The translations under genes were made by a program, and so were the position numbers. A stretch of DNA of 64,000 bases from Candidatus Heimdallarchaeota archaeon (GTDB taxonomy: Archaea; Asgardarchaeota; Wukongarchaeia; Wukongarchaeales; JBHIFL01): assembly GCA_046761065.1 (NCBI GenBank), contig JBHIFL010000001.1, positions 96,001 to 160,000 of the forward strand. Reading direction: 5' to 3'. The notes beneath the pieces are model-generated. The model made no database searches. It was not told the DNA's origin and saw only the letters and a list, made by a program, of their open reading frames with translations. This document shows positions 43,325 to 63,803 of the stretch, in pieces. Every line of letters begins with the position of its first letter. Positions within the stretch are counted from its first letter, which is position 1.

Positions 43325-43537
43325 GTTATTGTGTTGAGTTGTGCATTTTATGGGTATAACTTAGCTTTTGGATCAGTATCTACTCTTTTAAAACAGCTAA
43401 CACCTAAGATATAGGGGTATCTTATATTCTCACTTAATTTCTATTGGAGTTTAAAAATCCCTAGATCGACTAAGGTCTGACTGAAAGAGGAGACTGAAAG
43501 TAAAGGTCAAGACCCCACTCCTAAAAGATGTGGAATT

Positions 43538-43744
43538 GTGATGGTGATAGCAACGCAAGATCAAAACCTTACTGAAAGCAAAATTGGATACTTTACAGGT
43601 ATTATTGACGGTGAGGGGTGTCTCACAATTACAAAGGTAAAAAAACAAGAATTATCTGAGTGGTTTTCGCAATATACCCATCCATCAACTCACGGAGGGC
43701 CTGAACACTTGAAAAAAATGAGGAAATCTACCAAGAGATTCTAA
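43538..43744 (+). pseudogene. Truncated LAGLIDADG homing endonuclease remnant
   Basis: IGYFTGIIDGEGCLTI is a LAGLIDADG helix. The ORF ends after 68 aa. Confidence 0.65.
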
Positions 43745-44009
43745 AAATAAATGAAATACTTAAACCTTGTCTCTATTCAATTCCAATTTAACAGAACATT
43801 CCATATCAGGCTACAAGCACGGTGTGGTGTACGCCAGAGTCTTGTCCTCTTTGACAGACCCACTAAATACCATGTTCTTCCGTGGGGATACTTGATGTGA
43901 TTTGCCGAAAGGTACTCAACTCTAACAGGAAGACTATCGAAAATGTAATCGTAATTCCTCCCCCTACTTAACTAGGAGATTTTAAGTAGAGGTAGAAGGT
44001 GATAATATA

Positions 44010-52946: not shown

Positions 52947-53125
52947 TGGCGGGCCTGGTGGGATTTCCAAAGGAAAGACAATCTTTCGCTATTATTTGAA
53001 CCCACGACAGCCAGCTTTCTCCTTTTATGGCAAAGAGCCAAAAATGGCCCCAAATAGGAGGCTGACGCTCTATCTAGCTCTTAGTTCTTAAATGAACGAA
53101 GAAATCCATGCTGAGCTACAGGCCC
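52947..53125 (-). tRNA. tRNA-Arg(CCT) with three introns (D-loop 53072-53103, anticodon 37/38 53017-53054, T-loop 59/60 52964-52994)
   Basis: Spliced: GGGCCTG TA GCTC AGCATGGATA GAGC G TCAGC CT-CCT-AA GCTGG CTGTC GTGGG TTCAAAT CCCAC CAGGCCC G CCA. BHB motifs at the anticodon and T-loop junctions, relaxed motif at the D-loop. Confidence 0.9.
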
Positions 53126-53454
53126 AACTTTTCTCTTGGTGTTCCGGGGGATAGCAGAGAGCATTATCTATCTCATGTGAAACCTTATATCAAGTTATTT
53201 ATTCTTGTGCTTAGTTAGTGCAAAAAATCAATAGTAAACCAGATTTAACCCTATGATTTATTGGGAATGAATTCTAATGGTTAACAGTTGATGGTTTCCA
53301 AAAAAAGGGAAAAATTATTCAAAAGTTTTAATCAATTTTCTGAACTTCCTTCTGCAGTTTAATTGAAGATATGTGCCCCATAAACTACGTTCGTGCATAA
53401 TTTGTTTGTTAAATAAGGGGAAGTGGGAATTATATCCCAGTCGGGGTGAGCATC

Positions 53455-55434
53455 CTAGTTCTCGTAATCTTCGTTAGCGATGACTATGAATGGACGCATC
53501 ATTTCATTGTCTTCGTGATCGAGGATGTGGCAGTGCCAAACGTATCCTGGGCCTTCAGTGGCATCAAATGGATAGTCAGGGCTTCCATCGATGGGTGCAA
53601 AGCGCACTCGAATGACAGTGACCTGCCTAGGGTGAGCCTGAATGGTATCCTTCCAACCCTGCTCGTTCGGTGGTGCTTCCATCGGCATTCCCATCAAGTA
53701 GGGTTCAATGGGCAACTCATTTGGTGTATAACTCAGTGGAAATGGTGGCTCGCACGGTGCATTAAGCTCGATCCAATCATCCCAGTACTCTTCGGCATCA
53801 ATCCATTGCCGACTGATGAGCTGGAACTGAACCAGGTGCAAGTGGATTGGGTGTGTGTCCTCTGTAGGATTAACGATTACCCACTCTTCTGTTGAACCGA
53901 GCTTAGGCAGTTCAGTTATATCAGCAGCCCATTTTTGACCGTTTAGGAGGACCTCCAAGGGTTCGTCAGCCGAACTCATGACTTCGACCAATGGCAATAT
54001 TCTCTCCTCACTAATCTCCTCTGGCAATGTGGGCCACTCATCAGTAAGGAGATTGTTAAGCGGATCTTGTAGCGGTTTTGACGCAAATCCTGCACTATCA
54101 GTTACTGTGAATTGCATTATTTGTCCTACTGTCTTTGGATCAGCTGGGTTACCACCTGGTGCGCCACCTTTGAATGGTGCATCGGCAGTGTTTGTAAGTA
54201 TCACTTTGGTTCCTGTTTCTAAGCCTGAAAAGTCAACCAAAATGTCCGCCCTTTCACCAGGTGCGATAGTAAGCGCTTCTAGCCCATATACTGCTGATTT
54301 CAGGTAGCCACCATCACTCCCAATCTGTGTGAATGGTATGAGATCGCCATATCCTAATGGATTCCCCATTGAATCTTCACCGTCTTTTTCATAGAAGCTG
54401 AGCGTGTAGAAGCGTGCGTTTGACCCGTCCAAAAGACGGAGTCGGTACTGTCCCTTGTCCACGTTCAAATTTGGCCAGACCTTGCCATTAACCATTATTG
54501 TATTGCCAAAGAATTCAGGCTGCCAGTATGGGTGAACATCAGGGTTATTGCCGTCACTAGGGAAATACATTGAGCCGTCCTCCAGAAATATACGATCTTG
54601 AATCACGAGGGGTATCTCATATTTTCCAGAGGGCAGTAATGGAGCAACTTCGTCGGTGGGGTCTCGTAGGAGGTAGAAACCGGCAAGTCCCGACATAACA
54701 TTCAGGCGGGTGATGCCCAAGGCATGGTCGTGATACCACAGGGTTGTCGGCGGTTGCTCGTTCGGGTATACAAAGACGGCAGTATTGCCACCTTTAGCGC
54801 GTCTAGCTGTGTTGTACGTTGGACCGTGTTTCCCATTGATAGTGAACCAAGCATCTGGGTGACCGTCGGAGGTCGACTGGACTTCGCCTCCATGTAAGTG
54901 GGGGATTAGTGGAACTGGCCTTTGAGCTTCTGGATAACCTGGTGGGAAGAGGGGAGCTTCGACTGGATATTCTGGCATTGGGAAGTTATTGGGGTTCGCC
55001 CAGTGAAGAGTTGGGTCAATCGCAAACATATGCGAAGACCAAATCCTGTTTTGCCAGTTCACGTAAGAGGGGATGCCTCTAACTGCTTCGAAGGTAGGTC
55101 CTGGCGAATTTCGGACAAAGCCTAACCGGGTTCCTGTTACCGCATCTTTGGCTATACCTCCATAACCCCAAACCACTGTGGTCGGGTATCCGGGAGGTAA
55201 AATCTGCTGCTTGAAACTTTGCATAACAACGGTGTACTCATGTCGTATCACTTCACTGCCTCTGCCTTTAATCACTCTTGGAACATATTCTGGCGGTGGA
55301 CCAGCTAGTTGATTCACATACTTAGGAATAGTCTTCGGATCCAAAAAAACCGAGGCATCGGCTGAAGCTGGTGATGCTAGTACAAACACGAAGATTATGA
55401 GTAAACCAAGACTAAGGTTCTTTGTGTTGTGCAT
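53455..55434 (-). CDS. Secreted multicopper oxidase (CotA/bilirubin oxidase-like)
   Basis: Signal peptide. Cu motifs HLHG, WYHDH, HPIHLH, WHCHILDHEDNEMM. Confidence 0.94.
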   Translation of the reverse strand: MHNTKNLSLGLLIIFVFVLASPASADASVFLDPKTIPKYVNQLAGPPPEYVPRVIKGRGSEVIRHEYTVVMQSFKQQILPPGYPTTVVWGYGGIAKDAVTGTRLGFVRNSPGPTFEAVRGIPSYVNWQNRIWSSHMFAIDPTLHWANPNNFPMPEYPVEAPLFPPGYPEAQRPVPLIPHLHGGEVQSTSDGHPDAWFTINGKHGPTYNTARRAKGGNTAVFVYPNEQPPTTLWYHDHALGITRLNVMSGLAGFYLLRDPTDEVAPLLPSGKYEIPLVIQDRIFLEDGSMYFPSDGNNPDVHPYWQPEFFGNTIMVNGKVWPNLNVDKGQYRLRLLDGSNARFYTLSFYEKDGEDSMGNPLGYGDLIPFTQIGSDGGYLKSAVYGLEALTIAPGERADILVDFSGLETGTKVILTNTADAPFKGGAPGGNPADPKTVGQIMQFTVTDSAGFASKPLQDPLNNLLTDEWPTLPEEISEERILPLVEVMSSADEPLEVLLNGQKWAADITELPKLGSTEEWVIVNPTEDTHPIHLHLVQFQLISRQWIDAEEYWDDWIELNAPCEPPFPLSYTPNELPIEPYLMGMPMEAPPNEQGWKDTIQAHPRQVTVIRVRFAPIDGSPDYPFDATEGPGYVWHCHILDHEDNEMMRPFIVIANEDYEN

Positions 55435-55606
55435 TTTTTATACCTCAATTTTTTGTATAGTTTGTGATAATGTGAGATATTGTCCTTTTATGTTGGATAG
55501 TTTCTTTTTAGTTAGTTAATTTCCATTTGGCTATTGGGTGTACCTTACATTTCGAAGGCAATTATTCTCCAAAAAGTAGGATCCACAAGGATCTACGAGA
55601 GAACCT

Positions 55607-55684
55607 CCAAATAGGATGCTATTGCTCTGTCTGGTTCATAGTCCAGTTAAATGAACTAAGGAATCCATGCTGAGTTACAGATCC
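55607..55684 (-). pseudogene. Degenerate duplicate of the 5' half of tRNA-Arg(CCT), including its D-loop intron
   Basis: Manual alignment to 53050-53125 gives 62 identities in 78 columns. The CCT anticodon and the start of the anticodon intron are kept; the stems are broken. Confidence 0.8.
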
Positions 55685-55769
55685 TGTTCTCCTTTTTTTA
55701 TGGAACATTAGAAATAGTACCATCTTGAATGCAAGACCAAAAATAAACCTAATGTAAAATTATAGTTGT

Positions 55770-57104
55770 TTATGATAGTGTTTTGAGCACATCTTCAAAA
55801 ATGTTTAGACCTATTGTTAGCTCATCCTCATTGATAATCAACGGGGGAACGATTCGAATAAGGGATTTCCCTGCCGGGAGCACGACAAGCCCTCGTTTGA
55901 ATAGAGACTTAGTCATTTCGCTCTGTTCTTCTTTTGCAGGCTCCTTTGTTTTTTTATCTTTTACAAATTCAATACCAATCATAAGGCCTTTGCCCCGGAC
56001 ATCACCAACAATCTCATAGTCCTCTTTCCACTCATTAAGGCGTTTGAGAGCGATTTCACCCATGCGTGCAGCATTTTCGACAAGCCGCTCTTCTTCGATA
56101 ATCGCAAGGGTGGTTAACGCCGCTGCACATGCTAGCATGTTTCCACCATAGGTATTGGCATGAGCTCCCTGAACCTCAAAGTTATAGTCTTCTCGCATCA
56201 CAGTAGCACCCAGTGGGATCCCGTTGGCAATAGCTTTCGCGATTGTCACTACATCAGGAGCGACACCATAATGTTCAATTCCAAACATCTTACCTGTCCG
56301 CCCTATTCCCGCTTGGATTTCATCTGAAACAAATGCGATACCATGGCGCTTACAAGTAGTTGCAAGGTCTTGGATAAACTCGTCAGGAGGAGTTACATAT
56401 CCCCCTTCACCTTGAATTGGTTCGATAAAGAGAGCGGCTACGTCAGAAGCTGGAAGGAGGGTTTCAAACAAGACTTCTTCTAAGAATTTTCCACACCAAA
56501 CTCCACAATCGGGGTATTTAAGCTTGTACGGACAACGATAGCAGTATGCATAAGGAATATGAACTACTCCTGGCATAATCGGCATATACAGCTGGCGGTG
56601 AACGGGTTTACTGGCTGTTAAGGCTAAAGAACCCATGGTGCGGCCATGGAACCCCCCGATTGTACTGATAAAAAAAGGGCGCTTTAATGCCCGTTTTGTG
56701 GCTTTGATTGCCGCTTCATTTGCTTCCGTTCCAGAATTTGATAAGAAAACTCGCTTTCCAAAAGTACCTGGGGTAATTTCTGCTAATTTCTCAGCAAGTT
56801 CTACTTGACGGGGATTGTAGTAATCTTGACCAGCTGCATGCACTAGGGCTTTTGCTTGTTCATATATCGTCTCGGTGTATCGCGGGTGATTATATCCAAT
56901 GTTTGCTACAGCGATTCCTGCCGCAAAATCCAAAAACACATTCCCATCGACATCTTCGAGATAAACTCCATCGCCACTTGTAAATACAACGGGGAATACT
57001 TTGGTTGATGTGGCGAGTGCCTTCGTGTCCCGTTCTACAACCCTTTTAGCAATTGGCCCCGGAATTTCGGTAACAAGTTTCGGTTCTTTTTCGATCTTTG
57101 ACAT
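55770..57104 (-). CDS. PLP-dependent aminotransferase class III (GabT/ArgD-like)
   Basis: DVDGN.FLDF, NSGTEANE, GFHGRT, EPIQGEGG, DEIQAGIGRTG, AKAIANG, GDVRGKGLM. Confidence 0.92.
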   Translation of the reverse strand: MSKIEKEPKLVTEIPGPIAKRVVERDTKALATSTKVFPVVFTSGDGVYLEDVDGNVFLDFAAGIAVANIGYNHPRYTETIYEQAKALVHAAGQDYYNPRQVELAEKLAEITPGTFGKRVFLSNSGTEANEAAIKATKRALKRPFFISTIGGFHGRTMGSLALTASKPVHRQLYMPIMPGVVHIPYAYCYRCPYKLKYPDCGVWCGKFLEEVLFETLLPASDVAALFIEPIQGEGGYVTPPDEFIQDLATTCKRHGIAFVSDEIQAGIGRTGKMFGIEHYGVAPDVVTIAKAIANGIPLGATVMREDYNFEVQGAHANTYGGNMLACAAALTTLAIIEEERLVENAARMGEIALKRLNEWKEDYEIVGDVRGKGLMIGIEFVKDKKTKEPAKEEQSEMTKSLFKRGLVVLPAGKSLIRIVPPLIINEDELTIGLNIFEDVLKTLS

Positions 57105-57630
57105 TAATATCACTCCTGCTTTTTACTTCTTGTTGCATAAAAGCCCCTGAGTGAGGGATTCGCATCCAAACTGTCGAGTGTATATCTTTTCACATTGGAC
57201 TCGTTATAAAACGAATGATTCATCTTCATCCCACGAATATTCCATCTCGACAGGGCCAGGAAGTGTGTCTGGCTGTCCTGCGAGTGTTGCCAAAGCAAAT
57301 AGGCAGCAAAGTTCTAGATTCATGGCAGGAAAAGTGTCAAATATAAGAGGGGAGACAAGAGGAATAACTCATAGATAGGGGGATTGTATTCTTTTTAATA
57401 TTTGTGGGAGAATACACCGCTGCTTAGAGTGTGGTAAATCCAACGAGGGTAAAGATAGCTGGACCTCTTCATATATCTATGGATATCCTCCTTTCTTTCC
57501 TCCCCCAACCGTTCCTATGGTATAACTCTGCACCCAAAATTTGTCCTGAATTCTTCTCTTAATTCCAAGATCTATATTTCCTCGGATTTCCCCGTCCACC
57601 ACACAACAATTACAAAAACAACGATAGGAA

Positions 57631-57660
57631 AAGCTTCGTCCCTAGGACGGAGTAGTTCAC
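57631..57660 (+). mobile_element. Solo IS605/IS1341-type right-end hairpin
   Basis: AAGCTTCGTCCCTAGGACGGAGTAGTTCAC resembles the intact right end AAGCTTCGCCCGGCAGGGCGGGGTAGTTCAC with a compensatory stem change. No tnpB upstream. Confidence 0.75.
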
Positions 57661-57769
57661 TACTTATCATGGAGTAAGAAGCTGTGCTTGGTGGAAAGTG
57701 CTGCATCTTGTATATTAATTGCCTAAAGAAAAAAAGAACAGCCTAGATAGTCTTTAATCTTAAGGTTAG

Positions 57770-57930
57770 CGGGCCCAGCGGGATTTCCAAAGGAAAGGCC
57801 TGCTTTCTCTTCTTTGAACCCGTGACCCCCAGCTTTTTACCACCAATAACAGCATTTAGGTGTCCGCAAGCTGGTGCTCTAGACGACCCATCTTTTGAAG
57901 GGGGTTCTATCCAAACTGAGCTATGGGCCC
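57770..57930 (-). tRNA. tRNA-Arg(GCG) with three introns (D-arm ~22/23 57879-57906, 37/38 57835-57863, 59/60 57784-57812)
   Basis: Spliced: GGGCCCA TA GCTC AGTTTGGATA GAGC A CCAGC TT-GCG-GA GCTGG GGGTC ACGGG TTCAAAT CCCGC TGGGCCC G. Clean BHB at 37/38 (TTGC/GTAA core, CACC/GGTG outer helix). CCA not encoded. Confidence 0.88.
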
Positions 57931-63246: not shown

Positions 63247-63373
63247 TGGTGGGCGGGCCCGGATTTCCATGAGATTGCCAATAGACAAGTCCCTGTTGAA
63301 CCGGGGACCTCCACCTATCTTAGATCAGTGATCTTGTAAGGGTGGCGTCATAACCGGGCTAGACCACCCGCCC
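63247..63373 (-). tRNA. tRNA-Val(TAC) with two introns (37/38 63317-63334, 59/60 63264-63294)
   Basis: Spliced: GGGCGGG TG GTCT AGCCCGGTT ATGAC G CCACC CT-TAC-AA GGTGG AGGTC CCCGG TTCAACT CCGGG CCCGCCC A CCA. Clean BHB at 37/38 (CTTA/TAAG core, GATC/GATC outer helix). Confidence 0.9.
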
Positions 63374-63499: not shown

Positions 63500-63803
63500 T
63501 GATCTAGTCCGTCATTAGTAATGGAGCTTCCTCCATCGCTCTCTGAGATCCTTTCTGTGCGACGTTCCCTGTGGGGGATCGGGACGGGTTTATGGCTGTC
63601 CTCTGTCGTAGGATATACCCAAGAGACCTGTTCAGAATATTCTGCGCGCCATTCAAGTCGGCTTTATAGACGAACCCACTGGCACATGTGAACTGCCTCT
63701 TGGTTCGTTGGTCGTTAGTGCCACATCGATGGCATATTTGTGAGGGTGGAAGCTTCATAGGCTTCATAAGATCTAAAGAATGCCACTTACACGTCTTAAG
63801 CAA
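63500..63803 (-). pseudogene. 3' fragment of tnpB with degenerate IS right end
   Basis: SQICHRCG....FTCASGF..ADLNGAQNIL (Zn finger + RuvC-III), followed by the right-end-like GAAGCTCCATTACTAATGACGGACTAGATCA. Confidence 0.8.

Follow-up and report, generated by a model that had tools for sequence, protein, structure and literature searches.

An intron very probably copied between two arginine tRNA genes at a single T-loop position in an Asgard archaeon

Two arginine transfer RNA (tRNA) genes of a Candidatus Heimdallarchaeota archaeon, Arg(CCT) and Arg(GCG), carry at one and the same position, between bases 59 and 60 of the T-loop, introns that are very probably homologous by copying. Both genes lie in a stretch of 64,000 nucleotides (nt) of assembly GCA_046761065.1, referred to here as the window (contig JBHIFL010000001.1, positions 96,001 to 160,000; G000:C1:96001-160000), together with a third interrupted gene, Val(TAC). 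The mechanism that best accounts for the copying is, with fair confidence, short-patch ectopic gene conversion between similar tRNA genes, and the direction of copying was probably from Arg(CCT) to Arg(GCG). The genome under study, G000, is a draft of 4.42 Mb (91% complete, 8% contaminated) and the only member of its own family among the genomes compared, two of which belong to the same order. Syntenic loci of relatives (L numbers) were found via the neighbouring primase gene, and a tree of that primase divides the family into the G000 subclade, which includes the close relative L183 (GCA_046758425.1), and a sister subclade of L096, L173 and L097.

ARAGORN and Rfam returned no tRNA call in the window, to whose genes both are blind because each is interrupted by two or three introns. 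The genes were therefore delineated with a purpose-written T-arm finder and cloverleaf parser, whose output for His, Arg(TCG) and the three longest genes is uncertain outside the T-loop. With the introns removed, the genes give a canonical cloverleaf whose T-loop has 7 nt, and the 59/60 junctions can form a bulge-helix-bulge (BHB) motif with a 4-bp central helix, two 3-nt bulges and flanking helices, in which T-loop bases 54-57 pair with the 3' end of the intron and the T-stem closes the structure. An earlier reading made from the letters alone, hereafter the sequence-only reading, had held that TGGA is constrained by pairing with TTCA in the BHB core, and this is borne out, a 4-bp helix with TTCA (H=4) and an exon helix of 4-5 bp being possible in all three 59/60 introns. 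The central helix is paired in 100% of cases over 9 distinct alignment rows; minimum-energy folds do not always display it, and covariation in the Arg alignment is uninformative, as the stem hardly varies. From this structure and the two EndA subunits encoded in G000 (PF01974 genes), splicing at 59/60 is predicted, and the window 59/60 introns would be ordinary protein-spliced (EndA/BHB) tRNA introns.

The sequences and coordinates originally quoted for the Arg and Val introns proved correct on re-check, as did the observation that the two Arg 59/60 introns have in common a GAAAG/CTTTC stem and their last 14 nt. The 17-mer made of those 14 bases and three exon bases occurs at two sites only in the window, where 0.02 are expected; a search of species genomes for an exact 18-mer returned 34 bacterial matches, which were taken as chance, and a scan of viral genomes gave one match, not in a tRNA. 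The last six bases of every 59/60 intron were excluded from all similarity scores because BHB pairing constrains them, and the null model for the Arg pair kept the base pairs of each hairpin and dropped the BHB-fixed ends. Against this hairpin-preserving null, the two introns of G000 are identical at 23/31 positions (P=0.006), and those of L183, both 29 nt long, at 26/29 with the same bulge (P=0.002). The best match of the Arg introns among 66 outside introns scores 0.55, compared with 0.91 within the L183 pair. No relationship links the D-arm introns or the anticodon introns of one gene to those of the other (P 0.48-1.0), as had been supposed. The kinship suggested for the Val(TAC) intron does not hold (P=0.39 and 0.77 against the two Arg introns): its TGGAAA ending is real, consisting of the BHB helix strand plus bulge, and resembles that of the Arg introns because the BHB constraint fixes the last six bases.

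The timing of the event emerges from comparison with orthologues. Arg(CCT) of the sister subclade keeps homologous introns; compared with L183, the 59/60 intron is 63-73% alike, and over the same distance the D-loop and anticodon introns are 52-77% alike. The Arg intron thus resembles its paralogue far more than its orthologue, over a short patch as in a gene-conversion tract, and therefore sequence moved or was homogenised after the two subclades split. In a tree of the introns the GCG introns cluster with the CCT introns of the subclade (support 86, on a short alignment). The bulged base still distinguishes CCT from GCG introns in all species, and the copy event therefore predates their radiation; it is dated by these sequence comparisons, so far as they reach, to the stem of the G000 subclade.

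Two alternative histories were considered and dropped. One took the Arg(CCT) intron of L096 and L097 as a replacement of Arg(TCT)/Lys type, and was abandoned since the introns align in register and diverge no more than the gene's other introns; that intron is 74% like Arg(TCT) and may reflect an older copy. The other, in which the two Arg genes would have exchanged T-stem base 64 reciprocally, was unsupported. Trans-splicing of one Arg gene with the other was likewise rejected, as the acceptor stem would mismatch.

Across the genome, 28/45 complete tRNA genes are interrupted at 59/60, in 27 cases by an intron of 27-34 nt and in one, Val(CAC), by an intron of 427 nt; in the sister family such introns occur in Glu genes only. 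A single genome-wide mobile intron family, the wider claim of the sequence-only reading, is not what these introns form: most cannot be aligned with one another, and 7/351 pairs among the 27 short ones score at least 0.6, against 1.0 expected. What stands of that claim is the Arg pair, one sequence moved at one position, and the sharing of related introns by different tRNA genes beyond chance, in host genes that are not whole-gene duplicates. Same-isotype pairs score higher than others (P=0.0035), similarity of the T-arm flanks is greater in high-scoring pairs (P=0.004), a Mantel test gives P=0.019, and comparisons of 59/60 introns with introns at other positions never reach 0.6 (0/1350). The clear pairs are isoacceptors: Ala GGC/CGC (26/32), Lys TTT/CTT (23/32), Arg CCT/GCG, and Val(TAC) with the Val(GAC) of a relative (77%). 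Ala TGC has no 59/60 intron. The hairpin stem does extend beyond Arg tRNAs, with matches in Ala CGC, Ala GGC and a Met/Ile2 CAT gene. This stem motif, present in five genes of G000, was found in 0/399 other Asgard genomes, the pattern having been drawn from G000 after the data were seen, and an AAAG..CTTT core, also picked post hoc, is present in 7/27 introns of G000 and 0/66 elsewhere (null mean 2.1). A looser group of Arg, Lys, Met/Ile2, Ala, Gly and Trp introns is plausible but weak on sequence grounds, the best identity among the top cross-isotype pairs being about 72-74%, and no family at 80% identity or more spans two or more isotypes. A loose pattern run on the sister family returned noise.

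Ectopic gene conversion predicts position-locked, similarity-guided, short-patch transfer. The near-identical T-arm exons of the two isoacceptor genes would pair and give rise to a short non-reciprocal recombination patch, bringing in an insert of about 30 nt and leaving the anticodon, the other introns and the flanks intact. The T-loop half of the BHB is identical in every tRNA, and a copied intron would thus be spliceable at once and near-neutral. Earlier conversions of this type probably connect the introns of Ala, Lys and Val, and possibly those of Met, Gly and Trp. We infer a DNA-level mechanism for the copying of the Arg intron; any trigger is conjectural. Independent support comes from genome G020 of another Asgard family, where Arg(TCG) holds the 59/60 intron of its tandem neighbour Arg(CCT) (29/29; L139:1488-1871) along with exon bases 64 and 73 of Arg(CCT), and retains its own upstream introns and downstream flank; the congeneric G315 (L225) has a different intron at the 59/60 site of Arg(TCG). 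This could be a very recent conversion or a misassembly. As a separate observation, the Lys TTT and CTT 59/60 introns are common to both genes within G315 (23/29) and the Lys CTT intron of G020 resembles the Lys TTT intron of G030 by eye, which would amount to isoacceptor intron turnover in a second family (loci L217, L236, L130, L152, L132).

Several points weigh against copying by conversion. The introns are about 30 nt long and of low complexity, with a purine-rich 5' arm and a pyrimidine-rich 3' arm, and the mean 59/60 similarity within G000 (0.34) equals that to the introns of another family (0.32-0.33). The cross-isotype links Ala-Gly, Met-Arg and Arg-Trp are weak (65-72%), and isoacceptor enrichment is not significant in the four other genomes with several such pairs. 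The G020 case is possibly an assembly chimera; the window Arg pair offers no diagnostic co-converted exon base, the flanking bases being ambiguous; and the sister-subclade comparison covers Arg(CCT) alone.

The explanation closest to gene conversion is an unlikely one, and would act as the trigger for conversion and not as an alternative to it: a small LAGLIDADG homing endonuclease, encoded in a 59/60 intron, would have cut the intron-free T-arms of many tRNA genes, and repair would have copied the intron of the nearest look-alike gene. The short introns would then be, doubtful as this is, empty and self-protecting shells that split the target of the enzyme. Such cutting in trans would account for both the sweep of one site, to be seen in the contrast between 28/45 genes of G000 and the Glu genes alone of the sister family, and the nearest-gene repair. 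The 427-nt Val(CAC) intron (G000:C19:45399-45825, within the gene at G000:C19:45318-45842, L271), with its terminal hairpin and broken frame, looks like a decayed homing-endonuclease intron, and an intact LAGLIDADG open reading frame of 154 aa is present in a relative, elsewhere in the region syntenic with the window (L179:2016-2480). However, the frame in Val(CAC) (29 aa) is LAGLIDADG-like by eye only, is not confirmed by Pfam or PHROG and has no homologue in 150 Asgard genomes, and the terminal stem is, by eye, unlike the Arg introns. Both Arg copies, moreover, share length and loop, so that it was the short form that was copied and not an endonuclease-bearing one; the Arg and Val(TAC) introns, of 29-31 nt, encode no endonuclease, the broken frame of Val(CAC) being all there is. 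Transposition at the RNA level, the other route that the sequence-only reading had offered, is less probable still. An excised circular intron, reverse-spliced by EndA and ligase into another T-loop and fixed via cDNA, would respect the position lock, as every T-loop supplies the same BHB half, and fits some of the cross-isotype likeness (the AAAG..CTTT core). Neither the isoacceptor bias nor the flank bias would be expected from it, and a bare intron would carry no exon bases, contrary to the co-conversion in G020; a search of the 91%-complete G000 turned up no RVT_1 reverse transcriptase, and the Asgard census of 2026 reports no reverse-transcription signature (10.64898/2026.10.13.758758). 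Gene conversion is accordingly favoured over reverse splicing, since sharing tracks exon similarity and never crosses positions and since the search for a reverse transcriptase came up empty.

A likeness due to selection and chance, all 59/60 introns being variants of one design of about 30 nt with a purine arm followed by a pyrimidine arm, is very improbable as an explanation of the Arg pair. The 59/60 introns of G000 are 27-34 nt long and those of three other families 28-32 nt, the same strand asymmetry recurs in G010, G020 and G030, and convergence accounts for the bulk of the introns and for the Val ending. It cannot yield 26 of 29 identical positions with the same bulge, or the gap between the best outside score and that within the L183 pair, and the motif is missing from the 399 other Asgard genomes; it is largely refuted for the Arg pair and still valid for the weak cross-isotype links. 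Scarcely credible is the duplication of a whole intron-bearing Arg gene followed by a change of anticodon, which the sequence-only reading had named as an outcome that would overturn its proposal. The two isoacceptor genes are only 4.7 kb apart and their anticodon stems are alike, but each exon is nearer to the sister-family gene of the same anticodon than to the other Arg gene, and the two genes show no kinship in their D-arm or anticodon introns, which in Arg(CCT) predate the copy event. Mature Arg(GCG) shares 93% identity with its intron-free counterpart in the sister family and about 79-80% with Arg(CCT), and four Arg isoacceptors of that family (CCT, GCG, TCG, CCG) are without a 59/60 intron. 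Exon and intron orthology together rule out whole-gene duplication.

It had also been proposed that T-loop introns disrupt the attachment (att) sites used by integrases, for which there is no support, and the little evidence that bears on it is unfavourable. A multicopper-oxidase islet (53455-55434) has Arg(CCT) on one side and a decayed duplicate of that gene's 5' half on the other, so that the intron-bearing gene still flanks an islet with a duplicated 5' half. The islet is present in L183, L184 and L186 and missing in L173, L177 and L181, and the T-loop intron is present in all of them. No integrase is found on any tRNA-bearing contig of G000, and a test of integration in this genome therefore has little or no power; no att-like duplicate of a tRNA 3' end of at least 20 nt was found. 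Elsewhere in the genome the 5' part of Arg(TCG), a gene with an apparent 53/54 intron, recurs as a similar duplicate of 95 nt located 2 kb upstream, gene and duplicate bracketing a dehydrogenase-like open reading frame (G000:C25:33610-35729). The coordinates of the window features are given in the table.

Table. tRNA genes, introns and related features, in window coordinates
Feature	Coordinates	Strand	Remarks
tRNA-Arg(CCT), three introns, CCA encoded	52947..53125	(-)	cloverleaf parse; syntenic orthologues L173, L096, L097, L177, L181, L183, L186
Arg(CCT) 59/60 T-loop BHB intron, 31 nt, bulged hairpin	52964..52994	(-)	homologue of the Arg(GCG) 59/60 intron (very probable)
Arg(CCT) 37/38 anticodon-loop intron, 38 nt	53017..53054	(-)	vertical inheritance; missing in L173
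Arg(CCT) D-loop intron, 32 nt	53074..53105	(-)	vertical inheritance; boundary uncertain by 2 nt
Decayed copy of Arg(CCT) 5' half, with D-loop intron and part of anticodon intron	55550..55684	(-)	low end approximate
tRNA-Arg(GCG), three introns, 3' end CTA not CCA, A49-C65 mismatch	57767..57930	(-)	cloverleaf parse
Arg(GCG) 59/60 T-loop BHB intron, 29 nt	57784..57812	(-)	
Arg(GCG) 37/38 intron, 29 nt	57835..57863	(-)	no kinship with Arg(CCT) counterpart
Arg(GCG) D-arm intron, 28 nt	57879..57906	(-)	no kinship with Arg(CCT) counterpart
tRNA-Val(TAC), two introns (37/38 at 63317-63334)	63247..63373	(-)	cloverleaf parse
Val(TAC) 59/60 intron, 31 nt	63264..63294	(-)	separate small family; 77% to relative's Val(GAC)

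A number of further observations concern these genes and their counterparts. The 3' end of Arg(GCG) reads CCA in relatives and CTA in G000, and the T-stem mismatch of the Arg genes falls at 50-64 in relatives (L177, L183, L186) and at 49-65 in G000. Arg(CCT) of L096 and L097 has an additional T-arm intron at 53/54, which L173 and the G000 subclade are without. A truncated TnpB/Cas12f-like zinc-finger open reading frame (63504-63803) adjoins Val(TAC), and a LAGLIDADG remnant lies at about 43500-43980 of the window. Introns of 27-34 nt at 59/60 occur in several Asgard families (G000, G010, G019, G020, G029, G030 and G315 were examined along with G077), some of which have the purine-rich 5' arm, and those of G077 are mostly 18-23 nt long, which suggests lineage-specific rules of 59/60 intron size. 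Beyond the 59/60 position, Pro(CGG) and Pro(TGG) of G000 (C2:19913-20071 and C1:33453-33630) have a common D-loop intron (13/16), and the 33/34 introns of both begin with TGG. In tRNA-Ile(GAT), which has no introns (G000:C5:53193-53270 and L199:11004-11081), A54 and G60 replace T54 and the pyrimidine. The genome contains two differing Lys(TTT) genes (C208, C20), with contamination possible for C208, and no Phe gene was found in it.

The Arg case is a new instance of an already known sharing of introns between tRNA genes. Similar BHB introns common to different tRNA genes are on record in Thermoproteales (Fujishima 2010, via PMC4033280 and PMC4090602), where, as far as those two accounts go, the mechanism of transfer is unsettled and thought to act at the DNA level. 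As in the Thermoproteales so described, related BHB introns in G000 occupy genes with separate histories and the tRNAs have multiple introns. In Thermoproteales, however, 28.3% of introns belong to families at 80% identity or more (10.64898/2026.10.13.758758) and the families span many isotypes and positions, whereas sharing in G000 is confined to 59/60, links isoacceptors in most cases and affects a minority of introns. In yeasts, intergenic gene conversion is known to even out tRNA genes over short patches, and has been proposed to extend to their introns (Amstutz 1985, Heyer 1986, as cited in PMC4090602); as presented in that source, the yeast genes are multicopy genes of one isodecoder, whereas those of G000 are single-copy isoacceptors, in which the tract must end before the anticodon. 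Disruption of tRNA genes has been seen as a way of warding off integration (Randau and Soll 2008, as cited in PMC3293823 and PMC4090602), and, as in the outline of the idea given there, the intron lies within a conserved tRNA stretch able to serve as an att site, but G000 gives no supporting signal.

Asgard tRNA genes are known to be heavily interrupted (Valentin-Alvarado 2024, PMC11291895; Goswami et al. 2026, 10.64898/2026.10.13.758758), and G000 conforms to the published picture in that most genes have introns, many of them in the T-arm and D-arm, with lineage-specific gains and two EndA subunits. The census of 2026 found copying negligible, at 1.5%, counting only families that span two or more isotypes, and the words gene conversion and homing are absent from its text (10.64898/2026.10.13.758758). 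Isoacceptor copying as in G000 falls outside that test, and it would have been missed because it involves isoacceptors, one position, short patches and less than 80% identity within a genus. No new element or function is revealed by the Arg locus. The entry of intron DNA into archaeal tRNA genes is, according to the same census, the central open problem, and the homing reading, if true, would supply the route of arrival of introns that it left open. To that problem the Arg locus contributes a dated counter-example to near-zero copying.

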